From the IMG/VR virus record IMGVR_UViG_3300030107_004154, positions 1 to 60,773 of that record: a DNA stretch of 60,773 nucleotides; one strand, given 5' to 3'. Source of the DNA: a virus (taxonomy: Duplodnaviria > Caudoviricetes). Position 1 is the stretch's first letter; every line of letters starts with the position of its first letter. Below, one piece after another: positions 23,901 to 60,773 of the stretch. The notes beneath the pieces were generated by a model. It did no database searches and was not told the origin of the DNA. It saw nothing but the letters and a program-made list of their open reading frames with translations. Position numbers and translations under genes: made by a program.

Positions 23901-26743
23901 TTTTTATATTCCCACCATATTTTTGACTTACCAGAGTCTTGTAGTGCTACAAGCACTTGTTCCAGCTCTCGTATTAATGCTTCTAAATTTGATTCTCGGT
24001 CTTTGGGATCTGTTCCAAAAGTTCTCCCTTCATCTCTTTCTTGTCCTGCTAACTCTTGAAGCTCCTTAAGGGTATAAGATTTACCCCCTTGAGAATAAAT
24101 AGGCAGAGAAGCTGCATTTTCATTAGTAACTGGTTTTCCATCATATTCTAGAGTGCCTTTTTCAATAAGCTCTCCATATAATTGAGAAAAAGCATCCATC
24201 AAGTCACCATAAAAAAGATTATTACCCATTCCCATTCTTCTGAATAAATTACGCATTTGAGTAACAGCAAAAGGCATATCAATAGGTTTTCCATCAAGGG
24301 TCCACCTACTGGCTTTTTTATTTTTAAGTTTGTTTGCTCTTCCTCTTTTTCTAGCTTTTCTAAGAATACTATCGGCTTCTGCAGTAACATCAATATCTGC
24401 CTGCGCAGTTAAATTATATTTAAGAATCTCTACCCCATTTTCTGTTTCTTCTATTTTAAAAGTAGTATCTACAGTAGACTGTGTATCCATAAGGTCTAAG
24501 TATTTTTTTAGAACAAACTTAGACAACTTACCTTGAGCAAATAGTTCATCTAACTCCGCTCTAAATACTTCAGCAGTGGATAACCTAGCCTCATCATATA
24601 AATCTTGATCTGGGAATTGATCTTCATACTGTTCATCTGGAAAAGCCCAAGGTTTATTATTTCTACTACGGATAGGATTTTCTATAGACCCGAGAGAAAG
24701 GTTTTCAGGGTCACTAACAGGTTGGGGCTCAACCTCAAATATGTTTCCTTCGTCATCTAAGGTTTCCTGCATGTCATTAAAAGAAACAGGCTCCGCCCCT
24801 AGTTCTTGTACCTCTTCTAGGTGTGTTTCAGCATCTACAATGTCATAAGTGTAATTTTTGCTATTCTTAAAAACCTTATTTTTAAAATCATCAAGATGTT
24901 TTTGTCCATCTTCCTTTGGGTTATTAGTTTGAAAAGACTTAACAATGTTCCCTTTTTTATCTTTTACTCTAACAACCCAACCGTCTCTTGAGTCTCTACT
25001 ACGAGGAAAATCTAATATCCTAGCGAGCGTTTCATCTACCAACCTTTGACTAGGCATATTTAAACTAAATATATTAGTAAAGCTCTCCGCTTTTTGTTGG
25101 TTCTTAGTAAGAAGAATACCTCCTATTGGGCTTTTTAACCTCACATCAAACCAAGCATCCGTTCCATATTTTTCAGCTACCTCTTTTTCTATCTCTGCCC
25201 AATTATCTAGACTTTGAAACTCTATCCATGTGGTATCTATATCATTGGTTGGGTCCATCATAGTCTCGATCGCACCCCAAAGTTGTTCTTTTGTCTCTGG
25301 TATTACTTTACCTTCGTTTAGGCCACCAAATTTAGCTATAGTCATTTCTTTAATAGTCCTATTAATTTGGTATTTTTGGAGCCAATTATTGGCGGAAGAT
25401 ACAATCCCCCCAGCGCTGCCTCCAAGACCCCCAATACTAAGACCTGCGGAGAAACCCGCGAAAGCTGAAGTGGCTAGGTCTAATTTCATTTGCTCCTTTG
25501 AGTAACGAGGGTCAATCTGATCTTCAAAAAAGTTTTTAGTGCTTGGGTCATCAGCTGGTAATCTTTCTTGGTCCCATACTCCCATTTTTACTGAGCTTTC
25601 TATACCTGCTTGTGTAGTCTCCGCTATCATTTCAGCCCCACTTGCAGTTCCCATAGATCTAAAAACATTGCCAACAATTGAGCCCGGAGTCCTAGGAACT
25701 CCTTCTATTAAACCAGTCCCAGCAAAACCCCTAGGGAATATTGCTCTAAGAGCTTTAAACATCGTAACATCTGCTGCAAGTTCTGCTGCTGCAAAAGGGA
25801 CAGCAAGTCCTAAAGACTTCCAAGCTGAAACAGGGTCAGTGTATCCTTGTTCTGCATACTCTCCAAAAATAGTCCCTGCCCCTAATCTGTAAGACCCCTC
25901 AAAAGCACCTCCCATTGCCCAACGACCTAGGGTTTTATTTTTCATTTTTGTACGGTAGTTAGCATACACAGCATTCATTACTGCATTTTGTTTATTGGTA
26001 AGTGTAAGACCCCTTAAAGATGCTTCTACCGCCTCTCTTATAGACTGTTCAGTGATATCTGCAGCCAATAATCTTTTTGCTACTATTTTTTTAGCGCCTT
26101 GTTTAGTAACTGCAGCACCAGCTGCGGCTGTTATTCCAGCAGCTCCAGCAGGGATTGCTGCTCCTCCTGTTAAGATTGAAGCAATTCCTCCTATAGCTGT
26201 AGCGACTATGGTATCAGCAATTACTACACCCATAGTAGGCAAGGCTTCTCCTGCAAAACCTTGCATAGCTCTCCATCCATCATTACTAGCTACTTTGCCA
26301 AGGAAGCCTCCCCAAGTCTCTTCATCCCAAGCATCTGCAAATATTGCACTAGCATCTACTTTTTTTACCCTAGAAGCAGTCATTTCAGCATTGCCAGCTT
26401 GGAAAAGAGCTTCTTCTACCGCTTCTTCATTTCCAGCTAGAGAATAGAAAAGAGAACTAAGCTTATGGTGTAGTGCATCTACAGTATGAGCACCGGCCTG
26501 GGCGCCATACCCCATGATACGCGCATTATCTTTATTACTAACATCAACTTCTTCATATAGGCTAGGATCAGCATATAGACCAGCAATTCTTCCTGTATCA
26601 ACTGCATCCTCTTGGAAAATACCTGGGCCTGGTTTTATTGCTGCTTCTTCAGGTTCTAGATTAACACCACGTTCAAATATACCGCCTGGGGAGTAGGCTC
26701 CTGCTGATCTGGATCTGAATGCTTGGACTATATCATCAGCCAT
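20915..26743 (-). CDS. Large internal virion (DNA-ejection) protein with an HExxH metallopeptidase-like motif
   Basis: 1942 aa; Gly/Ala-rich hydrophobic N-terminal helices; GHEIGH...DEWFSD; C-terminal WQLKSFYYAY; position after head-tail genes. Confidence 0.7.
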   Translation of the reverse strand: MADDIVQAFRSRSAGAYSPGGIFERGVNLEPEEAAIKPGPGIFQEDAVDTGRIAGLYADPSLYEEVDVSNKDNARIMGYGAQAGAHTVDALHHKLSSLFYSLAGNEEAVEEALFQAGNAEMTASRVKKVDASAIFADAWDEETWGGFLGKVASNDGWRAMQGFAGEALPTMGVVIADTIVATAIGGIASILTGGAAIPAGAAGITAAAGAAVTKQGAKKIVAKRLLAADITEQSIREAVEASLRGLTLTNKQNAVMNAVYANYRTKMKNKTLGRWAMGGAFEGSYRLGAGTIFGEYAEQGYTDPVSAWKSLGLAVPFAAAELAADVTMFKALRAIFPRGFAGTGLIEGVPRTPGSIVGNVFRSMGTASGAEMIAETTQAGIESSVKMGVWDQERLPADDPSTKNFFEDQIDPRYSKEQMKLDLATSAFAGFSAGLSIGGLGGSAGGIVSSANNWLQKYQINRTIKEMTIAKFGGLNEGKVIPETKEQLWGAIETMMDPTNDIDTTWIEFQSLDNWAEIEKEVAEKYGTDAWFDVRLKSPIGGILLTKNQQKAESFTNIFSLNMPSQRLVDETLARILDFPRSRDSRDGWVVRVKDKKGNIVKSFQTNNPKEDGQKHLDDFKNKVFKNSKNYTYDIVDAETHLEEVQELGAEPVSFNDMQETLDDEGNIFEVEPQPVSDPENLSLGSIENPIRSRNNKPWAFPDEQYEDQFPDQDLYDEARLSTAEVFRAELDELFAQGKLSKFVLKKYLDLMDTQSTVDTTFKIEETENGVEILKYNLTAQADIDVTAEADSILRKARKRGRANKLKNKKASRWTLDGKPIDMPFAVTQMRNLFRRMGMGNNLFYGDLMDAFSQLYGELIEKGTLEYDGKPVTNENAASLPIYSQGGKSYTLKELQELAGQERDEGRTFGTDPKDRESNLEALIRELEQVLVALQDSGKSKIWWEYKNWTQEELETEIETKEGELSQLREEQSETTLEPTQEEKWDSAYEQWAKQPLSKMNMPKEKPIINGKEVNKKTKIEISNTVDELFGEASGFLKTIVEGARKLLGITKPILVFSTTESIDLGNARLNKIVEGIQAELQNDEKTKGRNIHFKDYDVIILNISPNATLETMGFYLKVLGHEIGHTFLNQLKENSLTNKALRNALLKEYKKDVAANPGIKQWQGQKGFDEWFSDKTASLLFDLHKGKIYKATNVGQSFLKKITEALKAFWDYITDGTAGKFITRSALGKERVAERFSYSESFAEFVNGLQTSQKEAQEQKDAREPGYEELAHVESLLESTGFGDKFGHKSLRNIEKLANRMLMNGKLPKWFKKIFDSAHGILFRMGPVGEEIANFFHKVSGVLGEEGFINAASGKAYEIINEIGEILGVNTTFTDEAKAVLEEASDETTATKDLSEKARKVRELLDKLYDDLELEKLGIKRRENFFPRLINLQEIAANEELRNALIDLLVKKNKGLTLKEATKIVEDLISKNESDEYNVVDEEGEYTIGMSRERSKYFENITFAELFEKKLVSPPEIALMEYVRKTVRRVEFEKRGGAEHLKKLVDQLSPEEQIIAQEAINAMLGKISPIKHDLWKKFTNWGLFYNVVSLLSMVVFASIPDAAGPVLRSRTLDVKTIVDNLFNSLTKEEGAQLAKSIGVNGLEAMMDMNLYQGETQQAQYGYAQKWTNGWFRFTQLERWTRWTRSFAAGMGRDFLIKHAKIVTDPNKLPGSYEVLTSKRYLEELGITGKEINEWVAQGQNLKTSPKIKSALRRFVDEAIVRPNSAERPIWASDPNFALVWQLKSFYYAYGKNIVGGVLRESRTIYGNKGQIPDAMYPLIMMALTVLPLTMIGWDLRERFKIGLAWLLPGISPADTDYRQSQSMSSGEYWFEVIDRGGIPGKYSLLFPLFMENRRYGDPFFVPMLGPTAEKTWNLVTLDTEIPELIPIYSNLNTSNFGGRNE

Positions 26744-26755
26744 AGTCGCCCAAAA

Positions 26756-29700
26756 TTAAGGATTTACTACCGGTAATATATCTATAAGATGATTGACCCT
26801 GTCTGGTGGCATTATGCCTTCAGATAGTATCCATTCTAATGGTACGGAATTTTCTGCCTCTATCCCTGCGCCACCTGTTCTAGTTCCTTTTTTATGGGCA
26901 AGTTTAAGACCCGCACCATCTTTATCTTGTATTAATACAAACCTATCTTGGAGCTCAGAGATTGAAGTAACTGTTGCATCCCCTGCCCAAACATCATTCC
27001 AGTATTCAGCAAAAGAAGCTTCATCAGCAACACCAACCCAATTTTTAAGTGAGCCCCATACTCCCTCCCAGAAACCAACATCTCCCCATTCACTAGTAAC
27101 TACCATTAAGTCTTTAAGTGCATCTTTATCATACATCTCTACGAAAGTATGCAGGTTATCTGGTCTGTAACTACCCGCGCCAGGGGTCTTAGCTATCAGT
27201 CTGACATAATCCATGTCTGTAAAGGCAGGAAGCTGAGATTCATCTTTATATTTTCCAGAGGCTAATAATGCTGCTTTCCATTGTTCCTCAGCTATAGCAT
27301 ACATACCTGAGGTCCTACCAGTCTCCGCAACATTTAGTATTACCTGTTCGGATTCACTGTCAAACTTCTCAGAATCAAAGCCTGCGCCACCGAAAGATAC
27401 TACTCCGTCGTTGTCTATTGACATATTTCTAAAGTCCCAAGAACCTTTAAAGGTGTTCCATAAACCGTCTATATTAGTACCAATATCCTTTACTTTCTTC
27501 GCAAAAGCGGTTGCGCTTCCACTAGTTTGCTCAGATATAAACTTCTGCCACTCAAGGTTTAGCCTACTTGCATTTTGCTTTGTAACTACCTGTTGTCTTT
27601 TCTCCGTAGTGATGTCAGCTGGTCCTTTATTTATGTCGCCTGTTGTAATATAGTTAAATAGCCTCTCAGTAGCATCTTTTAGAGGCATGCCTAAAACCAT
27701 ACCAGTATGGTCTGAAAGAGCCATAGACATTAATAAAGATGTTTTATATGGATCTTTTACCTCTCCCCTATCTACTGCAGCTTTAAGGTCATCTGCGTTG
27801 TTTATCTTACTGCTCTCTAACCAGCTATCAATCCTAGCAATTGTCTCTGGACTAAACTTAGACTCGGCAAAAGTACCTTCTTCTCTCATCTTTTCTACAG
27901 CATCAGTAAGCTCTGAGCCTTCTAAACCTACCAAAGATGGAAACATCTCATTTAGAGTAAGAGTGGCTGGGCCTACTTCTTCAGTTTGTGTTGATGGGGA
28001 CGCCCCTTTCCTTTCTTCTAAAGTTTTAAAATCATAATTCCCTGTATCATTTGGGCCACCTGGGTAATTACCAGAAGCTATAATTGCTCTTAATTCACTT
28101 TCATGGATATTTGGACTACCGAGGGATTCCCATATTTGTTTATGCCCTTCTTCGTACCCCGGATAACTCCATGGAAATGGATTAGAAGTACGAGGGTTTA
28201 AAGGTCTATCTCCTGTAGAGAGTGGGGTATCAGCAAATTTATCGCCTTGCACAGGTGTGCCCGCCCCTCCATCAGGAGGTACCTGGTTCTGTAGGAGAAC
28301 TTGAGCATCCTCCGTTCCAGTCACAAAATCACCAAAATAATTTAAATCAAATGGGATTTCACCCTCCTTATCTTCTAACGCCCCTAGGTTTGAAAGGTCT
28401 TGTTGAACGGCTAATTGGTAGTTGTCGGCTAATACTCTTAAACGCTCAGGATCAGCTAGAAGGTCTTTCCAGTTTTGATCAAGCGTTGACCTAACTCCTT
28501 GTCCTTCTTCTGTATCTTGCCAATATTTAAACATTCCACTTACCACTCCATGTTTAGAGTTTATCCCATCAAGTGTACCCGATTCTTTTATTTTACTTAG
28601 CTCAGGAAAAAGTCTAAAAGGATCAACATGGCCCTGGTTTATATAGGTAGTTCCATGTCTACTGCTTGCTGCGTTAGAGGTCATAAAGCTTATCTTCTTA
28701 AGAGACTTTTCATATCTCTTTTGGTTTTGATTAAATACAATCCCTACTTGAGTAGTAGCATCTGGGTCCCCACTCACTGAAGTTATATTATTTAATTCAT
28801 TGTCTCTACGTTCTCTTCTTTCATTAGTCTGGGCATTTAATTCATCAATTTCTGATGTAAGGATAGCAGAAAGAGTTACCTTATCCCCTGGTATCACGTC
28901 GTCTGCGTTTTGACCATCCCTTCTTTGAGTAACGAGGGTATTTTCATAATCATCATATATATCATGATACGTTTGTCCCTGTTTACCCATACCCAGTGTT
29001 CCTCCATATGCGTCGGAATTTGAATTAAGTAGCTTTATTTCCGTGTAGTTTGGGTTATATCTGCTCTGAAGGTCATCTACAGCATCTTCTAACATAGTTG
29101 CGACTTGATTCCCACTAAGAACAAGAGCTACATCATCCTCTTTATCAGTTCTCCATCTAGAGAGTAAACTCCAGCCGTCTTGTTGGGTGTAAACTGGTAC
29201 CATAACGGCTGATTTTTGATTTCTACCACTGTCTATATCTTCTTTCCATTCTGCTAACTGGGTTGCTGTTCCTTTGACTTTTACCTCTCCAACCTGAGCT
29301 TTACCCTCTTTAACTTCTGGATCCTCGGCTGTAAAAAACTGATCCTCTGTTAAGAGGCCTTTTTCTTCTGCTTCTAATAAATGCGTTGGAATTTGACCCC
29401 TGACCATCATAGGGCGTCCATAAAATTGGTTCTTTTCTATTGAGTGTCCTCCTCCTGCATCTGTTTTAAGCCACTCTAACAAGTAGTCACTACTAAGAAG
29501 CTCAGCCATTTCGCTTTCTTTCACATTGCCGCTCATCATGTACTCTAGACCTCCCTCAGCGACCTTTAACGTTCCATCATCTCCAAGTTCGAAAATACCG
29601 TTTTCACCATTACTATCAACTGTAAGCTTCCCCGTTAATAACTCTGCACCTTCTGCTTCTTTATAGGCCTCATAGTCTTTTCTCATTATCTCTTGAGCGT

Positions 29701-29776
29701 ATTCGTCGTTTCGGGCTTTACGTATATTTTGAGAGGTTTCTACCCCTTTTTGAAATGATGCCAGTGCGTTACTCAT
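26756..29776 (-). CDS. Internal virion (ejection) protein
   Basis: 1006 aa acidic ORF in the ejection-protein position; N-terminus ASFQKGVETSQ. Confidence 0.55.
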   Translation of the reverse strand: MSNALASFQKGVETSQNIRKARNDEYAQEIMRKDYEAYKEAEGAELLTGKLTVDSNGENGIFELGDDGTLKVAEGGLEYMMSGNVKESEMAELLSSDYLLEWLKTDAGGGHSIEKNQFYGRPMMVRGQIPTHLLEAEEKGLLTEDQFFTAEDPEVKEGKAQVGEVKVKGTATQLAEWKEDIDSGRNQKSAVMVPVYTQQDGWSLLSRWRTDKEDDVALVLSGNQVATMLEDAVDDLQSRYNPNYTEIKLLNSNSDAYGGTLGMGKQGQTYHDIYDDYENTLVTQRRDGQNADDVIPGDKVTLSAILTSEIDELNAQTNERRERRDNELNNITSVSGDPDATTQVGIVFNQNQKRYEKSLKKISFMTSNAASSRHGTTYINQGHVDPFRLFPELSKIKESGTLDGINSKHGVVSGMFKYWQDTEEGQGVRSTLDQNWKDLLADPERLRVLADNYQLAVQQDLSNLGALEDKEGEIPFDLNYFGDFVTGTEDAQVLLQNQVPPDGGAGTPVQGDKFADTPLSTGDRPLNPRTSNPFPWSYPGYEEGHKQIWESLGSPNIHESELRAIIASGNYPGGPNDTGNYDFKTLEERKGASPSTQTEEVGPATLTLNEMFPSLVGLEGSELTDAVEKMREEGTFAESKFSPETIARIDSWLESSKINNADDLKAAVDRGEVKDPYKTSLLMSMALSDHTGMVLGMPLKDATERLFNYITTGDINKGPADITTEKRQQVVTKQNASRLNLEWQKFISEQTSGSATAFAKKVKDIGTNIDGLWNTFKGSWDFRNMSIDNDGVVSFGGAGFDSEKFDSESEQVILNVAETGRTSGMYAIAEEQWKAALLASGKYKDESQLPAFTDMDYVRLIAKTPGAGSYRPDNLHTFVEMYDKDALKDLMVVTSEWGDVGFWEGVWGSLKNWVGVADEASFAEYWNDVWAGDATVTSISELQDRFVLIQDKDGAGLKLAHKKGTRTGGAGIEAENSVPLEWILSEGIMPPDRVNHLIDILPVVNP

Positions 29777-29786
29777 ATTTTATTCC

Positions 29787-30398
29787 TTAAATAAAGAAAG
29801 AAGCTAAAAGAGCTCCTGCTGCTCCAGTTGCGAATTGTCTTTTCTGCATTGAATACCCGTGTCGTGCTTGGGCGTAAGCTTGTGACCTAGCATTTGCATT
29901 TGCTGCAGCCCCACCTAGTTGGCTTAAATTGTCTCTATTTAGCCCTAAGCTCATATTCATTAGCTGATTTCTTGTACTATTTTGAAGGTCCCTGTCTGCT
30001 AATTTTGCTTGATTAATTGCACCCGCAGTAGACAGTGCGTTACCACGTTGTACAGCTCTTTCTTGTTCTTGTAGTTGGGCAGCAGAAAGGCCCCCACCTC
30101 CATACCTAGCTAAATTTCTAGCCCGTATGCCTTTATTTTTTTCTATCTCCATAGGAGTATCTTGTCTTACTAGGTCTTCTATTGGGGTATCATCTAAGGA
30201 ATCAATCAGCCTATTCTCAAAATCTCTATAATTTTTTATATAGTCATCATATTGCTGCCTGACGATACCGGCATAAGCTTTATCGGGATCTGCTACATTT
30301 GGGTAGTTTGAAGTATTATAATACCCAGCTTGCTCGTCCTCCCAGCCATATACCCTTCCTAAATTTCTTCCTAAGTTATTCCACAAAGCATTACTCAT
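29787..30398 (-). CDS. Internal virion protein
   Basis: A/Q/G-rich helical protein with hydrophobic C-end. Confidence 0.55.
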   Translation of the reverse strand: MSNALWNNLGRNLGRVYGWEDEQAGYYNTSNYPNVADPDKAYAGIVRQQYDDYIKNYRDFENRLIDSLDDTPIEDLVRQDTPMEIEKNKGIRARNLARYGGGGLSAAQLQEQERAVQRGNALSTAGAINQAKLADRDLQNSTRNQLMNMSLGLNRDNLSQLGGAAANANARSQAYAQARHGYSMQKRQFATGAAGALLASFFI

Positions 30399-30408
30399 AA
30401 TTATATTC

Positions 30409-31092
30409 CTACCACTTTAATGTTACATTACGCCACAAACTACGCCCTTTTGCTCGTTCTTCATCAGACTCTGGCCTATCCTTTTCATATATACCACTAT
30501 ATGTTCTATAGTCTTTTCGTCTACTATTTTTGAATTCGCCAGTTTTTGGATCCTTCTTTCCACCACCCCAAAAAGTATAGCCCTTCGCCAGATTGTCTTG
30601 GCCCGCGTCCCAAGCAGCCCCAGCTAGCTCGAAAGCGCTTTGTACATTCTGATCTCGGCTTTCTAACTTTCTTTGTGCGCTTGCTAAGACGTTTCTTGTC
30701 TCCATATCCGCTAAGCCAGCTAAACGAGTCTGAGACTCTGACTTTAAACCATGTCCGTAAGAGAGTACATTCAACTGCGTATCTTTTTTAGTAGCTTCCC
30801 CCACACTTGCGGCACCCACATAGGCGTCTAACCCAGCTGACGCCCTATCTGCAGACGCATCTACCGATTGAGTAGCTTGTAAACTAGGTTTATCTAACAT
30901 TTGTGAAACATCTGCACCCGATACTCCCGCAGCATATGAAGTAAAATCTTCTTTTTCTGACCTATCTCTTTCATGTAAAGCTAATGGCCCATACTTTTCT
31001 CGTCTATAGGCTTCTTCGGAAACTGCAATACCAGCACTCACCTTTTCGGCTTCACTAGCTTTGTAATCTGATGCTTTTGGTTTACCGCCCAT
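30409..31092 (-). CDS. Internal virion protein
   Basis: MGGKPK N-terminus and Ala-rich helices, typical of the first small ejection protein. Confidence 0.55.
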   Translation of the reverse strand: MGGKPKASDYKASEAEKVSAGIAVSEEAYRREKYGPLALHERDRSEKEDFTSYAAGVSGADVSQMLDKPSLQATQSVDASADRASAGLDAYVGAASVGEATKKDTQLNVLSYGHGLKSESQTRLAGLADMETRNVLASAQRKLESRDQNVQSAFELAGAAWDAGQDNLAKGYTFWGGGKKDPKTGEFKNSRRKDYRTYSGIYEKDRPESDEERAKGRSLWRNVTLKW

Positions 31093-37864: not shown

Positions 37865-39510
37865 TATGCGCTCATTGCAGTTTTACTCTTTTTGTCTTTC
37901 GCAATATATCTTAACCTATCTCGCCAAGAAGGTATATGCTCAGGCCTCTCATAAAAAGTTGCAAACTCAACCATCATTAAACCCACCCAGGCCAAAGCAT
38001 CAACTTGGTCATCATTGACCCCATTAGGAAAACGAAGAAGTTCAGCCACCATTGGGCCGGTCCAAATTGCGTCCTTCGGAAAGTATACCATGCCTTGTTG
38101 CATTCTACCTTGAATTGCTCTAGCTCTAGCTTCTTTATCTCGTCGCCCAACTTTTAAATCCTTAAAATAAGCAGAATGTAATTTACGTTCTGCTACACGT
38201 TTCTCTAGGAAAGGACCAATAGCCATTTCGATATGACCACGTTCTATCCCCACGATTCCCGGTCGCCACTGTTCGTACAAATCCAGGATCTTTTCTACAA
38301 GCTCGAATCCGTCATACTTCCCACGTACAGCATCAACTACAAACATATTATCATATTCATCTACTCCAACTACAACCCCAACAGAAAAATCGTTCCTTTC
38401 TCTTTGTCCTATAGCCAAGTCCCACGCACAATAATATCGTAATCTGTCATATTCAATTTCTTCGGGTTCATAATATTTAACCATGTCCCTAGTAAAATAG
38501 TCACCTTCATCTGATACTGGGTTCTGTTGGTATAGCGCGGTCCAGTCCCTTGGACCAATCGCTTTTTGTATCATTTCTAAAGATTCTAGGTTGTATCTTT
38601 CTGGGTGTAATGGTTCGCCTGTTTTTCTAAATTCTTCATCTTCTTCTGCTACTGCTGGATATTTGACCACTTCCCATTCATCTGCGCCATCTTCCGCATG
38701 TTGCAATAAACGGCCAGCTAAATCATCATCATGCCATCTAGTAAGAATAACTAGTATACCTCCACCGGGGGATAGTCGGGTATATGCTGTAGAGGTATAC
38801 CAGTCCCACGTCGCTTCGCGGTTGTTTTCAGATTCAGCATCTTCTCTGTTTTTTACCGGGTCATCAATTAATAATATATTTGCACCTTTACCTGTAATAC
38901 CACCACCAACACCGGCCGCGACATAACCACCCCCTTGGGTCGTTAACCAGGATTCGATAGACTGCGAATCTTTATCTAGTTTTGTTTTTTCAAAAACATT
39001 TTTATAGTTAGGTTCCCTTAATAATTGACGAACCTTCCTTGAGAAACTCATAGCTAAGGAGCCCGAATACGAACAACTAATAAATTCATGTTTTGGGTTT
39101 TTTCCTAAATGCCAAGCAGGAAAAGCCACACTAGCCAGAGTTGACTTCCCATGCCTCGGAGGCATAAACAGCATCAGTCTTGGGGATTTCTGATCAGCCA
39201 CATCTTGACTAAATTTCTCCAATCGTTGGCAAATATCTTTATGGACCCAACCTGCTTGGTAATCAGGATTAAATTTTTCTACAAAGGGTAGAAGACGTTT
39301 TCTGGACAATACACGCATCGCCAGTTCTTTTTCTGCACGAGCTTGTGCATCTAGTTCTTTTTGATCTGGACCGGGGTCCGCTGGTGGAGGTTTAGGCAAC
39401 TCGTCCGCTTCATCCGCTGCGCAATACACACAGAGCCCTTTGGGCAATACAAGATTTTCAGCTAATAGCTTCTTGCACTTGTAGCATTCGAGCTTTTGTA
39501 AATCTGGCAT
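37864..39510 (-). CDS. terL: Terminase large subunit
   Basis: MPPRHGKS Walker A, LLIDDPVK Walker B, TRWHDDDLAG, ALYQQNP, AWDLA, FPNGVNDDQVDA; N-terminal CxxC...CxxC. Confidence 0.95.
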   Translation of the reverse strand: MPDLQKLECYKCKKLLAENLVLPKGLCVYCAADEADELPKPPPADPGPDQKELDAQARAEKELAMRVLSRKRLLPFVEKFNPDYQAGWVHKDICQRLEKFSQDVADQKSPRLMLFMPPRHGKSTLASVAFPAWHLGKNPKHEFISCSYSGSLAMSFSRKVRQLLREPNYKNVFEKTKLDKDSQSIESWLTTQGGGYVAAGVGGGITGKGANILLIDDPVKNREDAESENNREATWDWYTSTAYTRLSPGGGILVILTRWHDDDLAGRLLQHAEDGADEWEVVKYPAVAEEDEEFRKTGEPLHPERYNLESLEMIQKAIGPRDWTALYQQNPVSDEGDYFTRDMVKYYEPEEIEYDRLRYYCAWDLAIGQRERNDFSVGVVVGVDEYDNMFVVDAVRGKYDGFELVEKILDLYEQWRPGIVGIERGHIEMAIGPFLEKRVAERKLHSAYFKDLKVGRRDKEARARAIQGRMQQGMVYFPKDAIWTGPMVAELLRFPNGVNDDQVDALAWVGLMMVEFATFYERPEHIPSWRDRLRYIAKDKKSKTAMSA

Positions 39511-39602
39511 TAATACCTTTTACTTTTTTGCTTTCTTGCTTTTTTTGCTGCCGCTTTTCCCTTTTTTGTGTACGGGAACTTTTTCTTTCCTACTTTTGGC
39601 AT
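39510..39602 (-). CDS. 30-aa basic peptide coupled to terL (not in ORF track)
   Basis: MPKVGKKKFPYTKKGKAAAKKARKQKSKRY; TAA overlaps terL ATG (TAATG); AGGAG upstream. Confidence 0.6.
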   Translation of the reverse strand: MPKVGKKKFPYTKKGKAAAKKARKQKSKRY

Positions 39603-39717
39603 TTCTTTTCTCCTTTTGCTCTGAAACCATAACACTACCCATATAGGCAAAAAAAGCTAAGCCAATAAGTAAAGCTATTCCAAAAACAATATCCATAACG
39701 AGCTTAAGTGTTTCCAC
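39520..39717 (-). CDS. Small membrane protein
   Basis: TM helix IVFGIALLIGLAFFAYM; the basic C-terminal part overlaps the 30-aa peptide in another frame. Confidence 0.45.
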   Translation of the reverse strand: METLKLVMDIVFGIALLIGLAFFAYMGSVMVSEQKEKRNAKSRKEKVPVHKKGKSGSKKSKKAKK

Positions 39718-39856
39718 TAGGTTTAGCTAATCCAGTTAGTTTCCCTTTTATAGGAGTAAGCTTCATACTTCCATCTTTATTTTGAGAAATCTGCGTATGG
39801 GTAGTTGTTCTTTTTACTCTCCTAGCATCTGCCGCTTGTTTATATTTAGTTGACAC
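39704..39856 (-). CDS. 50-aa basic protein (not in ORF track)
   Basis: AAGGAGG SD then GTG: MSTKYKQAADARRVKRTTTHTQISQNKDGSMKLTPIKGKLTGLAKPSGNT. Confidence 0.5.
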   Translation of the reverse strand: MSTKYKQAADARRVKRTTTHTQISQNKDGSMKLTPIKGKLTGLAKPSGNT

Positions 39857-40370
39857 TTTTATCCTCCTTGCTTGGCTCTAAGTAATTTGTCTCAGATCCT
39901 GCTATTTTTAATAATTCAGAATCTGACATACGCTCGAGTCTCTCTAAATTATCTACATTAATATTAACCTGTGTTGCTTGCTCAGGTGCAAATAGACCGT
40001 GAAGCTTGCATAAAGAATCGACGACATTTTTTTCTTCCGTCGCGTTTGCAGATTTTCTATGTGCTTCTAAATACATAGTAGTCGCAGTAGTGCGGTCAAA
40101 TTTTACTTCTTCACGCATCTCGGACCGTAGATAATCAACCGCCTTTACAATGGCAGGTCTTTTAAAAACCTCGTACACGGAATCCTGGTTACGGTACCCC
40201 GCTGCACGGCCCGCGGCCGCTTTACTCATTCCTTTTAGATAAAATAAAATTAACCTTTCTTCTTGGACCGAAAGCTCGGATAAACGAACCCCCGCGTAAG
40301 GAAAATGGGATTGCAACTCTGTTCTATCTTCATCAGTTACTTCAACTGCTTCGTTTTCTAACAGGCTCAT
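39846..40370 (-). CDS. terS: Terminase small subunit
   Basis: HTH-like GMSKAAAGRAAGY, LCKLHGLF; first gene of the late block, upstream of terL. Confidence 0.75.
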   Translation of the reverse strand: MSLLENEAVEVTDEDRTELQSHFPYAGVRLSELSVQEERLILFYLKGMSKAAAGRAAGYRNQDSVYEVFKRPAIVKAVDYLRSEMREEVKFDRTTATTMYLEAHRKSANATEEKNVVDSLCKLHGLFAPEQATQVNINVDNLERLERMSDSELLKIAGSETNYLEPSKEDKSVN

Positions 40371-40376
40371 GTGCTA

Positions 40377-40406
40377 AATATAACTTATTAAAGTGTTATT
40401 TGTAAA
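40377..40406 (-). promoter_or_regulatory. Sigma70-like promoter for the late/terS unit (leaderless geometry)
   Basis: TTTACA-N18-TATATT, 6 nt before the ATG; no SD. Confidence 0.4.
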
Positions 40407-40554
40407 TTTTTTGTGGAAAATTTTTTTTGAAAAAATATAGTAGAAATCGCTCACGCATGGGATTCTACTATCACTACAGAAGCACTCCCCTCCCGAATCG
40501 GATCGGGGATAAGGAAATCCAAATCAAAGATTTGGAACCTTGTATTGAAAAAAC

Positions 40555-40580
40555 CGCTCTGGCGCACGCGCCTACGAGCG
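40555..40580 (+). promoter_or_regulatory. Conserved bulged hairpin element, copy 1
   Basis: CGCTC-T-GGCGC-AC-GCGCC-TAC-GAGCG; covaries with copies 2 and 3. Confidence 0.7.
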
Positions 40581-40657
40581 CTTACATATCTCTATGTAGT
40601 TAGTAAAGAGGAGCTAGCTACTATCATCATTAACCATCCTCACTTAAGGAGTCCATC

Positions 40658-41020
40658 ATGGATATCATTAAATTATTAGGTAACGGCGTCGGTAACATAC
40701 TCAAAGCAGGGTATACAATCGGCAAGGGTACCGCTAACTCATTCACCGAAGGTGTAAAAGAATCTTTCAAAGATCCAGCTGATAACATAGTTGGCAACAT
40801 GGAAGAAGATACATCTCTTGGTTATAAATCTGTCCAAGAAGAAGTCATGGAGGGAGCAAGAGATAACCCTCTAGACTATGAAGACGGAGAGTTAGATAAA
40901 CCAATCGCTGAAAAATATCGTGAGCTTAAAAAAGCTAAAGCTGAATCTGAAGCTGAATTTAAAGCTCAACATCAGACAGTTCAAACTGAGTTTGATTTCG
41001 AACCAGGAGGACAGAGATGA
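40658..41020 (+). CDS. Early hypothetical protein (acidic)
   Basis: SD TAAGGAG; 120 aa. Confidence 0.65.
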   Translation: MDIIKLLGNGVGNILKAGYTIGKGTANSFTEGVKESFKDPADNIVGNMEEDTSLGYKSVQEEVMEGARDNPLDYEDGELDKPIAEKYRELKKAKAESEAEFKAQHQTVQTEFDFEPGGQR

Positions 41021-41202
41021 ACGGTAACATCAGACGTCTAGCATGTGGGGTAGCCTTAGCTACCTCACTCCTATTAGCAATAGAATTAATACTATCATCA
41101 GGTATGGTATCTTACATTGGTGGTGTCTACGCATTCACCTTTGGAGTGGTATTCGCTAGTTCAATAGCTTATTTCATTCATTTATCTAAAGAGGTATCAT
41201 GA
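41017..41202 (+). CDS. Small 2-TM membrane protein
   Basis: ATGA overlap; two hydrophobic helices. Confidence 0.6.
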   Translation: MNGNIRRLACGVALATSLLLAIELILSSGMVSYIGGVYAFTFGVVFASSIAYFIHLSKEVS

Positions 41203-41315
41203 ACAAGTTAAAGTATTTAATTCTCATTCCTCTCTATCCACTATTCCTAGTTGGATTAACATTTTCTTTCTTTGTCCATCAAGTCAGAAGACAGGCTTGG
41301 CTTAATAAATCTTAA
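41199..41315 (+). CDS. 38-aa membrane peptide (not in ORF track)
   Basis: GAGG SD, ATGA overlap; MNKLKYLILIPLYPLFLVGLTFSFFVHQVRRQAWLNKS. Confidence 0.55.
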   Translation: MNKLKYLILIPLYPLFLVGLTFSFFVHQVRRQAWLNKS

Positions 41316-41320
41316 CTAAC

Positions 41321-41346
41321 GGGGGTGTCCAGCCCCCTTCTTTTTT
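41321..41346 (+). terminator. Rho-independent terminator
   Basis: GGGGG-TGTCCAG-CCCCC followed by TTCTTTTTT. Confidence 0.7.
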
Positions 41347-41406
41347 ATTTAACTACTATCATCAGTGCCGAAGTGCTTCTGCATCTTCGTGCACTGCCTG
41401 CATTTA

Positions 41407-41692
41407 TGGTTCCGTCTGTTCCACAGACATGTGCCGATGTGGAACCACATCGTGGAACCAATATTAAATGCATGGGAATGCGGTTTTGCGACTGCAAAGT
41501 TGCATTCTGGTTCCGCGGTTCCGCGTATTTCAGAACTATGTACTGAAATGAACCGTGGATCGTGGTTCTTGGTTTTAGGTTTAGAAGACCTAAAACTAGT
41601 GGAACCAGTGGAACCAAACCTTACAACCCTGACTGTTGTTGGGCTAATCGTGTTCCATTACTCGTGGAACCAAGTGGAACCATGTGGAACCA
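41407..41692. repeat. Iteron-like GTGGAACCA array (candidate replication origin or packaging site)
   Basis: Exact GTGGAACCA at 41439, 41452, 41599, 41608, 41664, 41674, 41684; inverted/variant copies at 41407, 41417, 41508, 41516, 41651. Confidence 0.75.
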
Positions 41693-41728
41693 AATTTTCG
41701 TCGCTCGCGCCTCTCGGCGCTCGCTCAC

Positions 41729-41754
41729 CGCCCTTTCGCAAGCGAATACGGGCG
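41729..41754 (+). promoter_or_regulatory. Conserved bulged hairpin element, copy 2
   Basis: CGCCC-T-TTCGC-AA-GCGAA-TAC-GGGCG. Confidence 0.7.
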
Positions 41755-41818
41755 TTTCTATTGTTATATGATCTTGGTACGGGTGTATCGAGACTTAACC
41801 TTAACTTAAGGAGATATT

Positions 41819-42067
41819 ATGAATCAATTATATTCATTATACATATTAAAATCTGGCGCTGATGGTAAAAACAGAAAGCGTGAGGTTGGCATAGCTACTA
41901 CTAATAAAGATGGTAGCTTAACATTACACTTTGACGTTGCTGTTCCGCTAACTGCGGACAATGAGCAAGCTAAAGTGTTCATGAGGGTTATTGAGCCAAG
42001 AGCTCAGGCCCAGGCAAATGGGCAGTCAACTGAGAATGTTGAACCAGCTCAAGCTGTAGCAAGTTAA
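41819..42067 (+). CDS. Small early protein, possibly ssDNA-binding
   Basis: SD TAAGGAG; REVGIATTNKDGSLTLHFD beta-hairpin pattern. Confidence 0.55.
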   Translation: MNQLYSLYILKSGADGKNRKREVGIATTNKDGSLTLHFDVAVPLTADNEQAKVFMRVIEPRAQAQANGQSTENVEPAQAVAS

Positions 42068-42232
42068 TTGCTAACATAGTCTACCCCTGCTCTATCAGAC
42101 CCGAGGGCAGGGCAAGACTTTAAAATTGCTGAGGTCTGTGGTTACTTCGAAGAACCAACGTAATGCTCGGAGTGCTGGTAAGCAGAGATATCCCACGGCG
42201 AGAATGAAAAAGCTCGCCACCCCTTAAATATT

Positions 42233-42418
42233 ATGAAAAAGAAAAAAATGACTATCGTAGAAAAACATGGCAGAAGTGGACCTTCCATCTCTGTTACATG
42301 GAAAGATGACGCTCTCTTAGAGAACTTGAAGAAGCTGTTAGGTCTAAAGACCAAACCAGCTGTAATACGATTTCTTGTAGAGAGATTTCGAAATGATTTA
42401 ATTAATCTGACTAAATAG
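42233..42418 (+). CDS. Ribbon-helix-helix-like DNA-binding protein
   Basis: SISVTW strand followed by helices LLENLKKLLG and KPAVIRFLVE. Confidence 0.55.
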   Translation: MKKKKMTIVEKHGRSGPSISVTWKDDALLENLKKLLGLKTKPAVIRFLVERFRNDLINLTK

Positions 42419-42427
42419 GAGGTTGTT

Positions 42428-42589
42428 ATGTTGGAATTTATGCTTGGATTACTGCTCGGTGGCTTCCTAGGCTACGTAGTGGTTTCTTATAGTTTTTATC
42501 AACTCGCCGTAGATTCATCTTGGCGCGAGTGGATTGAATTAAGAGATGAAGCCAGGAAGACTAGGATACAACTCGAACTCGAGGAGTGA
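42428..42589 (+). CDS. 53-aa membrane-anchored protein (not in ORF track)
   Basis: AGGAGG SD; MLEFMLGLLLGGFLGYVVVSYSFY... Confidence 0.6.
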   Translation: MLEFMLGLLLGGFLGYVVVSYSFYQLAVDSSWREWIELRDEARKTRIQLELEE

Positions 42590-42600
42590 GTGGAGGTAGA

Positions 42601-42641
42601 AGGGAATTAGTAGACGCGTGCGTCGAACATTCCCTTTTTTT
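42601..42641 (+). terminator. Rho-independent terminator
   Basis: AGGGAAT...GACGC/GCGTC...ATTCCCT followed by a T-run. Confidence 0.55.
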
Positions 42642-42834
42642 ATGTTTATTAGTTAACACGTGCAACATTGCTTCACGTGGAACAATCCGTGCGTGTTGCT
42701 ACTAGCCCCGCCTAAATCCGTGGCTGATGCTAAACCATCAGCCACCCCGCAGCGGTTACCCGTGCGGGTTTAGGCCGGCATCCGCAACAGCGCACCCCAG
42801 CTACAACTGCTTGCAATAGACCCCCTAAAGCTAG

Positions 42835-42860
42835 CGCCCTATCGCAAGCGATTACGGGCG
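42835..42860 (+). promoter_or_regulatory. Conserved bulged hairpin element, copy 3
   Basis: CGCCC-T-ATCGC-AA-GCGAT-TAC-GGGCG. Confidence 0.7.
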
Positions 42861-42905
42861 ATTCCATAATTTAGTGTATTTAATTAAGTCCATAAGGAGG
42901 TAAAT

Positions 42906-43061
42906 ATGGAACCAATACAAGTACCTGAAGAGGTATTAAATCAAGCTGAGGAAGCAGAAATGCGTTCGCGAGCTGAATACATGAATTCTGGTGAGTTTAT
43001 AGAAAGATTTATCAGACGAATTAACGCTATAAGAGGAGGAAAACAACATGGCGAGAACTAG
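42906..43061 (+). CDS. 51-aa protein (not in ORF track)
   Basis: Perfect SD TAAGGAGGT; MEPIQVPEEVLNQAEEAEMRSRAEYMNSGEFIERFIRRINAIRGGKQHGEN. Confidence 0.65.
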   Translation: MEPIQVPEEVLNQAEEAEMRSRAEYMNSGEFIERFIRRINAIRGGKQHGEN

Positions 43062-43812
43062 AAATGTGGATCATTTCGATCCATCAGACCAGGAAACAAA
43101 GGAATTGGTCACCCCAAACGAAACACCGGAATCAGCATTTATCCCTGATACTAATGCTGACCCCGAGGGTTCTGAAGTAAGAGATAAGCAATTGGCTATA
43201 CATTTGCCTGACTTTTACTTTAGAAAATACACTTTAGATGATTTAGGTAATCCTACCTTTATTCAGTCTAGAGTGGATGGGGTTATGGCTGTCTTTGAAG
43301 ATAAGAAAAATTCGATAATGACATTCAATAACCCAGACGATGAAGCAAGAAAGAAGGAAGAAGAATATTACCTTAAACAGTGCACTACGATAGCAGACGG
43401 CCTTATGCCTCTATTGGAAGTTGATCCACAGTCTACAGGTATTAACTTTTTGCAACTCACCACTAGAACGTGGGCAGAGTTCGCTTCTATTGCATATGAG
43501 TACAAGGAAGAAGCAAGCATGGCTAATCCAAACGATGATTTACCAACATGGTTGATCGAACGTGAAGATAAGATGTTTGGCCTTGGACGAAAAGCAAGAA
43601 TGCTTTCCGCTGTAGTCGGACTTATTGGGCAGGACTTTGGACTGCGTGATTTAAGTCTTAATTCACAGCGTGTCAGAATCGAAATTGAGAGACGTCAACA
43701 ACGTTTAGCTGAATGGAACTTTAAGAACCATGCAGATCAGTCGGTGAAGACAGCAAATACTTTAAACAGTGCAACACAAGAGCACACTAATAGTGTGTTT
43801 AGTAGCGCATAG
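43048..43812 (+). CDS. Hypothetical protein
   Basis: 254 aa; SD GGAGG. Confidence 0.7.
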   Translation: MARTRNVDHFDPSDQETKELVTPNETPESAFIPDTNADPEGSEVRDKQLAIHLPDFYFRKYTLDDLGNPTFIQSRVDGVMAVFEDKKNSIMTFNNPDDEARKKEEEYYLKQCTTIADGLMPLLEVDPQSTGINFLQLTTRTWAEFASIAYEYKEEASMANPNDDLPTWLIEREDKMFGLGRKARMLSAVVGLIGQDFGLRDLSLNSQRVRIEIERRQQRLAEWNFKNHADQSVKTANTLNSATQEHTNSVFSSA

Positions 43813-43822
43813 TTTAAATAAT

Positions 43823-43854
43823 CGGGGAGAGCTTTAGGGCTTTCCCCGCTTTTT
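43823..43854 (+). terminator. Rho-independent terminator
   Basis: CGGGGAGAGCT-TTAG-GGCTTTCCCCG then CTTTTT. Confidence 0.75.
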
Positions 43855-43876
43855 ATAGTCTAAATGGAGGAAAATT

Positions 43877-44473
43877 ATGGCTAATGTAAAAGAATTTCAA
43901 ATTAATCCACCTAACTTTCAGAAAGTACAACTGAAAGTCACAGGTTTAACACCGTTAATTCAGAATAAAATGAAGGAAACAGTGATACAAGAAATGGAAG
44001 ATGTTCGTGCGGGTAAGAAGACGAAAGTCAATGCCCAGAGAACAGCTATCGACCCTAAAAAAGAATATATCAAGTCTGCTTATAAGCAAGACGATGGTTC
44101 TTTTGGTTTTCCAGCATCTGCCTTTAAACAATGTGCAGTGCGTGCCGGTAAAGCCCTGGGCTTAGCTATGACTGACGCAAGAACATTATTCTTCGTGTTA
44201 CCAACTGCCCCTGACGGTGAGTGCGTGAGCATAAAGAGTAAGAAACCAGTCTTGCGTAAAGATCCAGTAAATGTAAAAACCGGAAAAGATCTAAGATTTA
44301 GACCGGAATTTAAAGACTGGAAAGCTGAATTATTAGTAAGTTATGACGCCGATAGAATTACTATTGAGCAAATAGCTAACTTACTTAACCATGGTGGTCA
44401 AACTGTTGGCGTAGGCGAATGGAGACCAGAAAAGAATGGTACGTTTGGTATGTTCCAAGTAGGAGCTAAATAA
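43877..44473 (+). CDS. Stand-alone Cas7/RAMP-like RNA-binding protein (Vipr-like candidate)
   Basis: RAMP-type signature order: LKVTGLTPLI (beta1), GFPASAFKQCA (cf. IPGSSLKG), LRFRPEF, C-terminal glycine-rich loop GGQTVGVGEWRPEKNGTFGMFQV. Confidence 0.7.
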   Translation: MANVKEFQINPPNFQKVQLKVTGLTPLIQNKMKETVIQEMEDVRAGKKTKVNAQRTAIDPKKEYIKSAYKQDDGSFGFPASAFKQCAVRAGKALGLAMTDARTLFFVLPTAPDGECVSIKSKKPVLRKDPVNVKTGKDLRFRPEFKDWKAELLVSYDADRITIEQIANLLNHGGQTVGVGEWRPEKNGTFGMFQVGAK

Positions 44474-60202: not shown

Positions 60203-60638
60203 TTAAACAGTATACACCTTTAAGGCTTTTTTCTTACCTTTAACATACATGTTTCGTACAAACTTCACGCCCACCTTCGGTGGTATTTTTTTGTATGTGC
60301 TTTCCCCAATTAAAATATCTACCTTTGCTTCTTTCGTTGCACTCTCTAATCGTGCCGCTGTATTCACAGCATCTCCTATCGCACTGAAATCAAATCTTGT
60401 ATCACTTCCCATATTGCCTACTACAGCTTCACCTGTATTAACACCTATCCCTATTGCTATCGGTTCGGGCAATTTGTCCTGGAGTTCCTCCATTGCCGTA
60501 CGCATATCCTGAGCACATGCCACAGCACGTTGTTCGTGGTTGTCTAGATTTAAAGGAGCATTAAATATCGCCATACACGCGTCTCCTATGAACTTATCAA
60601 CCATACCGCCATGTTTTTGTATACACTCAACTTGCACA
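60203..60638 (-). CDS. Adenylate cyclase catalytic domain, C-terminal part of the gene starting at 1319
   Basis: DKFIGD, IGIGVNTG, GNMGS..RFDFSAIGDAVNTAARLE, VKGK; in frame across the junction. Confidence 0.92.
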
Positions 60639-60773
60639 GTAAGAGCTTTATTCATTATTTCAGTGACTTGTTCTGGATCTAACTTCTCGGACAGGTTTGT
60701 AAACCCCCTGACGTCAGTGAACAGGAATGTACAAGTACGTTTCTCCCCTCCTAGCTTAAGTAAACTTGGGTCT
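60639..60773. repeat. Terminal direct repeat, right copy
   Basis: Matches 1..135 with one synonymous mismatch. Confidence 0.95.

Follow-up and report, generated by a model that had tools for sequence, protein, structure and literature searches.

Structured elements ahead of the early genes of an uncultured marine podophage and their association with the ejection-protein module

What is the role of three short inverted repeats that stand before the first early genes of a tailed phage in which no RNA polymerase is recognised? The question is raised by IMG/VR virus record IMGVR_UViG_3300030107_004154, analysed over its whole length of 60,773 nucleotides (nt) and here called the window, where a bulged hairpin precedes each of three early units. 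The repeat, the covariation of its stems, its position and orientation, its swapping as a module between relatives and a statistical link between hairpin type and the ejection-protein module of the virion were observed directly. The reading preferred here, with a probability of roughly 0.45, is that the hairpins serve as early promoter or entry elements, depend on their structure and are read by a putative factor from the ejection-protein module.

Repeat, pairing and placement of the three hairpins

The initial annotation described three 26-nt bulged hairpins, and all were recovered where it had placed them. On the plus strand copy 1 lies at 40555-40580 (CGCTC-T-GGCGC-AC-GCGCC-TAC-GAGCG), copy 2 at 41729-41754 (CGCCC-T-TTCGC-AA-GCGAA-TAC-GGGCG) and copy 3 at 42835-42860 (CGCCC-T-ATCGC-AA-GCGAT-TAC-GGGCG). 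The genome-wide motif scan that had been proposed gave three forward matches in the complete record, none in reverse and none in a backward control. A IUPAC pattern derived from the three copies, with up to three mismatches allowed, matched three times, always on the plus strand, with 0 matches expected from 100 dinucleotide shuffles. When only the 5-1-5-2-5-3-5 architecture was searched, irrespective of sequence and with at most one stem mismatch, seven matches were found on the plus strand and three on the minus strand; with no mismatch and with the T/TAC bulge required, only the three copies were left.

Compensatory changes in the stems had been claimed and are present. In the three-copy alignment all of the 30 cells are standard pairs, and three of the ten pairs are altered on both arms. 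The observed pairing and covariation was matched by 7 of 500 column shuffles, and pairing fell to 22-47% when the partner columns were slid by 1-3. The T and the TAC of the internal loop are invariant in the same alignment, as is the pattern nTTnnATnnnTnnnTG in the tract 3' of the hairpins, which agrees with the description given earlier. The argument that a 2-nt loop suits DNA is weak, as the folding program favours a 4-nt loop: the T pairs with the A of TAC and the apical pair opens.

All three hairpins are found at the start of the early arm, about 1.1-1.2 kb apart. Copy 1 precedes unit 1 (40658-41315, plus strand; open reading frames (ORFs) of 120, 61 and 38 amino acids (aa)), copy 2 precedes unit 2 (41819-42589, plus strand; 82, 61 and 53 aa) and copy 3 precedes unit 3 (42906-43812, plus strand; 51 and 254 aa). 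Genes led by TAAGGAG begin 77, 64 and 45 nt past copies 1, 2 and 3, respectively, as had been reported. Between hairpin and gene there is a plus-strand tail specific for the type, at 40581-40596 for copy 1 (nTTnnATnnnTnnnTG), at 41755-41770 for copy 2 (the tail, then a conserved leader; GATCTTGGTACGGGTGTATCGAG) and at 42861-42876 for copy 3. The statement that copies 2 and 3 follow terminators is correct in that such sites are present upstream, but they are distant. The terminator-like site that ends unit 1 (41321-41337) is 390 nt 5' of copy 2, and the stem with a T-run that ends unit 2 (42600-42641), seen by eye and missed by the terminator scan, is 195 nt 5' of copy 3. Unit 3 is ended by a terminator-like site at 43823-43848.

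By the scans run, the hairpins are not sigma-70 promoters, intrinsic terminators or Rfam families. A sigma-70 site was called at 9 or more of 12 hexamer matches (-35/-10, spacing 16-18 nt). The plus strand had no such site from 40692 to 44445 and none at hairpin 1; the closest one called is at 40414-40441. None of the hairpins is among the 13 called intrinsic terminators, and their tails (CTTACATA, TTTCTATT and ATTCCATA) are not T-runs directly 3' of the stem. A search of 39500-44000 with Rfam 15 at E up to 10 gave seven matches, far below gathering scores and none over a hairpin. In the matches listed, the hairpins also do not look like a repetitive extragenic palindromic (REP)-like repeat of the host. 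A relaxed pattern had at least 240 matches in metagenome and genome contigs; among the matches listed there was one per contig (median GC 66%), and only eight had complementary variable positions, all in DNA of 65-74% GC. Such matches can be explained by chance in GC-rich DNA.

Hairpin types in relatives and the ejection-protein module

A search in related phages had been suggested, and loci from relatives were anchored on TerL (80 loci). The outcome was divided: the motif of the window is absent from the relatives examined, but another short inverted repeat, with its own core and tail, is found at the same sites. With a strict pattern the hairpin type of the window had no match in viral contigs, and the T/TAC bulge occurred in 0 of 84 generic hairpin matches across the 80 loci. 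The homologous sites are located after a conserved TTGGAACCTTG (site 1), between a tandem GTGGAACC array and the conserved leader of the 82-aa gene (site 2) and before the 51-aa and 254-aa genes (site 3).

Each relative genome has one hairpin type of its own, which recurs at between two and five sites. Type B is CG[TC][CG]A-GTCGCTACGCTTTG-T[GC][AG]CG followed by TTGYTRGT, type C has outer stems around C-CAT[CT]-A.A-[GA]ATG-T followed by TAGTRTGTA, type D is CGCTT-T-CA[CT]CA-TTC-TG[GA]TG-[CT]-AAGCG, and type E has stems around a TCC loop, for example ACAGTTG-TC-CACG-TCC-CGTG-G-CAACTGT. The closest relative, G006 (TerL 99%), has a type of its own, GCGCT-TGTC-AGCGC followed by TTGTTAGT, and additional types are present in more distant loci. 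Pairing is kept within the types. Eight distinct 24-nt sequences of type B were found, seven with 5/5 stem pairs, and the stem has three variants, CGCCA/TGGCG, CGCGA/TCGCG and CGTCA/TGACG; in types C, D and E the outer and inner stems vary between sites yet remain complementary. Core motifs in sense orientation were counted in the early region as 3 in the window, 2 in G001, 3 in G003, 2 in G004, 3 in G010, 4 in G002 and 2 in G006. Regular expressions made for each type matched in the early region, in sense orientation and in genomes of the same type only, except for a few single chance matches elsewhere.

The type is exchanged as a unit. At the site of the 82-aa gene (21 loci compared), the GTGGAACC array on one side and the leader on the other are conserved, and what varies with type is the hairpin together with the 12-16 nt that follow it. 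Over 9.5 kb the window can be aligned with its closest relative at 86%; this homology breaks off at 40557, base three of hairpin 1, and is found again from 40596, the tail of copy 1 being part of the swapped unit. Because the swapped unit consists of the hairpin with about 15 nt and ends at a conserved leader, it resembles a promoter module. The promoter-like behaviour that had been suggested is thus seen in the fixed orientation, in the restriction to positions before early units and in the swapping of a unit that ends at the leader.

The ejection-protein genes are found on the minus strand about 9 kb from the hairpins, and the head genes in between do not follow the type. In 12 of 12 genomes the head genes are followed, in order, by ejC (about 200 aa), ejB (about 190 aa), ejA (660-1006 aa) and a giant protein (1780-3017 aa). 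In the window these are ejC (227 aa; 30409-31092) and ejB (203 aa; 29787-30398), both putative ejection proteins, the hypervariable acidic ejA (1006 aa; 26756-29776) between ejB and the giant protein, and the giant protein itself (1942 aa; 20915-26743), which resembles polyvalent and internal-core virion proteins and has a HEIGH motif and a conserved C-terminal half.

The link was analysed with 11 typed genomes (the window, G006, four of type B, one of type C, three of type E and one of type D) and 18 ortholog families, each present in at least 8 of the 11, using 5000 label permutations. The mean identity of same-type pairs exceeded that of different-type pairs by 31.1 points for the giant protein (p 0.0002), by 27.6 for ejB (0/5000) and by 25.8 for ejC (p 0.0002). 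For the other 15 families the difference ranged from -2.3 to +10.1, with +1.6 for TerL, +2.2 for the capsid and +2.4 for TerS. Of the binders proposed in the initial annotation the ejection proteins are therefore the ones with which hairpin type co-varies. The 82-aa protein and the 61-aa RHH-like protein, also proposed, do not follow hairpin type: the former is 1.5 identity points less alike in same-type than in different-type pairs, and the latter keeps an identity of 85-87% in relatives with types C and E.

Individual pairs of genomes have the same pattern. G001 (type B) and G002 (type C) are 97-100% identical in replication and early proteins, but only 39% identical in the giant protein and in ejB, and ejC has no match. 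The window and G006 have TerL and capsid proteins that are 99-100% identical, while the hairpin type and everything left of 31058 differ. Likeness between types goes the same way: types B and G006 have the tail TTGTTAGT in common and ejB/ejC that are 61-69% identical, and types D and E have a common architecture and ejB that is 56-59% identical. Among 13 further loci, none of which entered the permutation test, 8 yielded ejB/ejC; of these, L046 and G005 are one and the same sequence, L012 and L180 belong to the type-B protein cluster with an early region too short to type, and L025 is near type E.

These comparisons bear on two other explanations. The inverted repeats could be duplex operators, that is, palindromes to which a dimeric regulator binds and so switches early transcription off or on. 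Their location over the -35/spacer region of weak -10-like stretches agrees with such a role, and in lambdoid immunity regions phage-specific sets of operators change together with their regulator. Here, no early-gene family is confined to one hairpin type and no early gene tracks the type, the RHH-like protein included. The varying positions change on both arms every time, which independent drift of half-sites would not produce, and the asymmetry of T versus TAC is invariant. Operators of this kind are hardly probable.

Sites for replication or priming, where hairpins would load primase, helicase or initiator beside an iteron-bearing origin, are suggested by the GTGGAACC array that adjoins copy 2 and by the hairpins that act as single-strand initiation signals in other replicons. 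The DNA polymerase, primase-helicase, SNF2 helicase and exonuclease of G001 and G002 are, however, 97-98% identical although the hairpin types differ, and all copies have the same direction and stand before genes, so that this role is very unlikely.

A third explanation would share the co-variation with the ejection module equally. The ejectosome could read the hairpins on incoming DNA in order to pause or dose entry, comparable to the 850-bp stop in T7 and the first-step transfer in T5, the promoters being located elsewhere. Three sites at the start of the early arm, with the spacing given above, would suit this, and gp15-gp16 of T7 are described as binding DNA and governing entry (PMC13434306). 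A stop signal needs neither a constant orientation nor a constant spacing of 12-16 nt to the leader, and the order of entry is not fixed by a circularly permuted record. Entry control without a promoter function is considered quite unlikely.

Several additional properties of the module were noted. The homologues of the giant protein are between 1768 and 3330 aa long and have extra chitinase, YbiA-like or SLOG-type domains; the domains added are, in Pfam, PF00182 (chitinase class I), PF10686, PF12694, PF08719 and PF27376, as in polyvalent injected proteins. The nearest neighbours of the giant protein by language-model features include polyvalent-protein domains and clusters named internal core protein. 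ejA is acidic, looks disordered and has no homologue in three complete relatives; ejA and its positional counterparts are undetectable by tblastn between genomes with head genes that are 85-100% identical. No hydrophobic segments were found in ejB or ejC.

Transcription, strand and comparison with known systems

If the hairpins are promoter elements, transcription should begin shortly downstream. An A/T-rich stretch independent of type (TTATTAA-like; TAGTAA in unit 1) is found 13-25 nt past many hairpins and is, judged from sequence, a candidate -10 element. In unit 1 the candidate -10-like stretch (TAGTTAGTAAAG) and the putative start region are located at 40597-40613 on the plus strand, and the sequence is conserved in the closest relative. 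RNA contigs from two runs of one metatranscriptome sample cover 40610-40880, and both begin at 40610, 30 nt past hairpin 1 and about 42 nt past the centre of its loop (40566-40567); these are contig ends and need not be true 5' ends. If transcription starts near 40610, the centre of the hairpin would be near -40. No RNA contigs were found over the hairpins or over the late genes at 39000-40400 in four RNA runs, although missing contig cover proves nothing alone. For the 254-aa gene all four runs gave RNA contigs, among them those of the highest reported depths (670 and 235), contig depth not being a measure of expression. Contigs from two runs of one sample also cover 41980-42199, from the 3' part of the 82-aa gene into the intergenic sequence; both end at 42199 and may represent a stable fragment or a small RNA.

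The strand of the hairpin was addressed by a survey of triloops, in which distinct hairpins with perfect stems of at least 5 bp were collected from the early and late regions of 75 loci. Among 267 triloop hairpins in early regions the sense-strand loops T-N-C and G-N-A occurred 47 and 17 times, and the four most common sense-strand loops were TCC, TTC, TGC and TAC. The 517 triloop hairpins of late regions gave 27 and 28. A T-N-C loop on the sense strand is a G-N-A loop on the template strand, and G-N-A triloops form unusually stable minihairpins in DNA. For the template-strand loop of N4 promoters the 5' G and the 3' A are stated to be needed for extrusion and stability of the hairpin (PMC4496689). 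The asymmetry of the triloops together with the RNA contigs favours a DNA hairpin on the template strand.

The main rival is a role at the RNA level, with the hairpins as elements of the early mRNA that mark sites of processing, stabilise its 5' or 3' end or act in antitermination like nut/put hairpins. The placement on the sense strand between gene clusters, with covariation, is what such elements would have, and a transcript running through hairpin 1 could start from the sigma-70-like site that lies at 40414-40441 within a conserved region rich in A/T. With the apical C-G pair open the loops of the window read CAAG/CACG, which we take to fit the YNMG tetraloop class, and there is one sense-strand G.T pair in type C. 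Other evidence speaks against such a role. The RNA contigs cover 40610-40880 and not hairpin 1, 30 nt upstream (a weak point, from one sample), for units 2 and 3 no promoter was called in the stretch from the terminator before them to their hairpin, and the Rfam search of 39500-44000 with E up to 10 gave no match over a hairpin. An RNA read by host enzymes gives no reason for a change of type alongside virion proteins. For RNase III a stem of 10 bp that contains an internal loop is short, and sense-strand U-N-C triloops have, to our knowledge, no special role in RNA, unlike template-strand G-N-A in DNA. An RNA-level role is thus regarded as unlikely.

The initial annotation compared the hairpins with the promoters of the N4 virion RNA polymerase. 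This comparison holds for the hairpins ahead of the first genes, for the pairing that is kept and for the link of type to a virion module, but not for the loop features that define the N4 promoters. As in N4, the first genes are preceded by three small inverted repeats rich in GC, and the stem positions vary only with pairing kept (in the window 30/30 paired, 3/10 changed on both sides); for N4, non-conserved stem bases are stated to be free to vary if pairing is kept (PMC4496689). The reader would in both cases be delivered by the virion, in N4 as an injected virion RNA polymerase and here only apparently so, and several related types have a template-strand triloop G-N-A. Gyrase and SSB are required for extrusion of the N4 hairpins. 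The N4 promoter is described as a stem of 5-7 bp with a 3-nt loop, 5'G-R-A3' on the template strand, closed by C:G (PMC4496689). In the window the template loops are instead TT or GT (or CTTG/CGTG) on the 5-bp inner stem of a bulged, two-part stem of 10 bp, and in the TCC types the closing pair is purine-5'/pyrimidine-3' on the template strand and not C:G. Further differences are the apparent distance to the start, 11 nt from the loop centre in N4 and about 42 nt to the beginning of the RNA contigs here, the lack of a recognised T7-like polymerase domain in any virion protein searched and the genome of 61 kb with divergent early and late arms. Since the loop features differ and no polymerase of the N4 type was found, the elements are not members of the N4 promoter family, although they would work most like N4 early promoters. 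Full-text literature searches (result listings) gave nothing similar to hairpin promoters outside N4-like phages.

The view that the genome has no recognisable RNA polymerase was upheld by family, PDB sequence/profile and fold searches, while a polymerase with a novel fold could still be present. RNA polymerase families were found neither in PHROGs nor in Pfam among the large virion proteins and about 45 ORFs, and there was no PDB sequence or profile match. The giant protein was considered as a polymerase, but the folds of residues 1-950 and 470-910 had no Foldseek match at E <= 0.001; the best VIA Z was 8.5 (helical) and 6.2, respectively. Residues 470-910, folded at a predicted local distance difference test (pLDDT) score of 84.6, form small alpha/beta modules; they are somewhat like R3H-type and small alpha/beta domains (Z 4.0-6.2), but too little for this to be of use. 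ejA as a hidden polymerase, examined by sequence searches only, had no family or PDB match, no word-index homologue outside its own cluster and no tblastn match in the three complete relatives, and was set aside as a candidate.

The order and sizes of the ejection genes in all 12 genomes, small, small, medium and giant after the head genes, recall the T7 ejectosome (gp14/gp15/gp16), made up of a small outer-membrane, a mid-size periplasmic and a giant inner-membrane protein. T7 has three early promoters for the host polymerase at the entering end. There is no sequence or fold match to the T7 core proteins (best Foldseek E 0.44), the early promoters of T7 are ordinary sigma-70 promoters without hairpins, and we know of no co-variation of these promoters with gp14-16. 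T7 gp16 is described as a protein that binds the membrane and recruits the host RNA polymerase (PMC13434306). The promoter sets of T7-like phages and the operators of lambdoid phages resemble the present elements in that a genome-specific motif before several units is replaced wholesale with its trans-acting partner. In those sets the partner is an encoded polymerase or repressor and the motifs are read as duplex sequence, whereas in the present case no domain known to bind nucleic acids is found in the partner module, and the stems conserve pairing and not sequence.

In the preferred reading the hairpins would be the cis-acting, upstream half of the promoters of the three early units, the half that gives specificity, or alternatively coupled signals for entry and start of these units. 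The active form would be base-paired, as an extruded DNA hairpin or cruciform, rather than plain sequence, and each phage lineage would have its own type of hairpin plus tail. The reader would be part of the ejection module (ejC, ejB, ejA and the giant protein) that binds the hairpin after entering the cell with the DNA, and not an early product. The polymerase would most likely be the host enzyme, acting on the weak, type-independent -10-like stretch 13-25 nt downstream. A more specific and rather speculative proposal is that the ejection module holds the recognising factor either as a polymerase of unrecognised fold or as a structure-specific adaptor that loads the host RNA polymerase, the injection logic of hairpin promoters having arisen outside the N4 family and matched sets of promoters and ejectosomes being exchanged.

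A number of observations weigh against the preferred reading. Neither an RNA polymerase, a sigma factor nor a DNA-binding domain was found in any ejection protein, and the RNA data consist of contigs from one sample, which are unable to show true 5' ends. The loops of the window are not G-N-A on either strand, and types B and C are also outside this rule. Mismatches were tried as a test of strand, but two A.C and one G.T on the sense strand are too few. Not every element is a hairpin of this kind: type B pairs over 5 bp only and has a conserved loop of 14 nt, and several site-1 elements are direct repeats instead of a stem. As a class the site-1 windows fold no better than shuffles (median z -0.2; 10/57 below -2); the site-2 windows do so (median z -2.6; 14/22 below -2). 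The link to the ejection module is a correlation over about six types, and its nine same-type pairs all come from types B (four genomes) and E (three); with only two types giving such pairs, few independent events stand behind it. Types were assigned by eye first and checked with regular expressions afterwards, the giant protein of G011 (type E) is only 39-44% identical to those of the other two type-E genomes, and a small link was also found for scaffold (+9.0, p 0.0014) and portal (+3.9, p 0.0008). The same association could come from co-inheritance alone, with no tie in function.

The folding energies of the window hairpins are also ordinary. As single-stranded DNA they are no more stable than shuffles on either strand (-5.8 to -9.3 kcal/mol, z -0.25 to -1.9), so that the case for structure rests on the covariation and not on energy. 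Ordinary stability would likewise be expected of quasi-palindromes that have no function, that gene conversion has spread and that template switching keeps perfect; inverted repeats are known to undergo templated correction. Without a function, some type of element would not be expected at the homologous sites of the relatives examined (21 loci at the 82-aa gene), nor a strict orientation and region, nor a link to the ejection module, and an origin of this kind is highly improbable.

If the preferred reading is true, it gives a handle on early transcription in podophages without a polymerase of their own, on DNA that is still being threaded into the cell, and on what the large and fast-evolving ejection proteins do besides forming a channel. 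It would also explain the joint swapping of these modules in a group found on about 490-590 marine viral contigs, and pairs of promoter and factor could be a source of orthogonal parts. The change of type with the ejection proteins can be tested with short oligonucleotides against three or four proteins.

The phage record and sequences flanking the hairpins

The record is a complete virus (60,773 bases; CheckV 100%). One minus-strand gene spans both of its ends (1-1319 and 60203-60773); the record is therefore a circular permutation, which does not give the true genome ends or the order of entry. The 'terminal repeat' of the relative G001 is a 99-nt assembly overlap. The late arm, on the minus strand, begins with the small terminase (39846-40370) and continues with TerL, portal, scaffold, capsid and tail genes. 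The early and replication arm, on the plus strand from 40658, includes a family A DNA polymerase, a DUF5906 primase-helicase, an SNF2 helicase and an exonuclease. No tRNA genes were found in the record.

The phage is a member of a large and abundant clade of uncultured marine podophages. A relative of TerL is encoded on 489 viral contigs and one of the capsid protein on 589, from marine samples, and the best 80 contigs of each set are about 85-90% identical. For 40300-43100 there is no close DNA relative among cultured phages; the best match of TerL to a cultured phage, at the protein level, is an Aeromonas phage (53%). The 254-aa early protein (43048-43812) has no family and no match in cultured phages and is 66-75% identical among the relatives.

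Between the terminase and early arms an A/T-tract (40377-40441) is strongly conserved and carries sigma-70-like sites in both directions, TTTACA-18-TATATT toward TerS and TGGAAA-16-TATAGT toward the early genes. The motif CTACTATCA(T/C) is found at 40465, 40618 and 41353, and recurs just 3' of terminators and 5' of the repeat array in many relatives. CTACTATCAT was considered as the actual promoter, but its seven matches in the window (at most one mismatch) are not significant against 5.9 expected, though it is kept after terminators in relatives; for unit 1 the RNA contigs, which begin at 40610, upstream of the copy at 40618, speak against it.

The GTGGAACC array (41439-41691, plus strand) ends 38 nt before copy 2. 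It has seven exact copies against 1.15 expected, in addition to inverted GGTTCC copies, is iteron-like and is kept in relatives. A copy of TTGGAACC is found at 40532, 16 nt before hairpin copy 1. In more distant relatives other repeated words occupy the position of the array, GTTACA-like in L172 and L134, GTGTACC in L126 and GTGGAACA in L142. The array may be an origin or a region for binding of a regulator, and may also switch type.

The stretch 5' of hairpin 3 (42700-42790) is GC-rich and non-coding, with nested inverted repeats GCCTAAA...TTTAGGC around GTGGCTGATG/CATCAGCCAC and CCCGCA/TGCGGG. It has no Rfam or tRNA match, and relatives have a different structured stretch there. A second hairpin, GCGCC-TCTC-GGCGC, is located at 41695-41727, just 5' of copy 2; in the closest relative (L004, minus strand, 240-208) its loop is replaced by the complement, GAGA, as if inverted.

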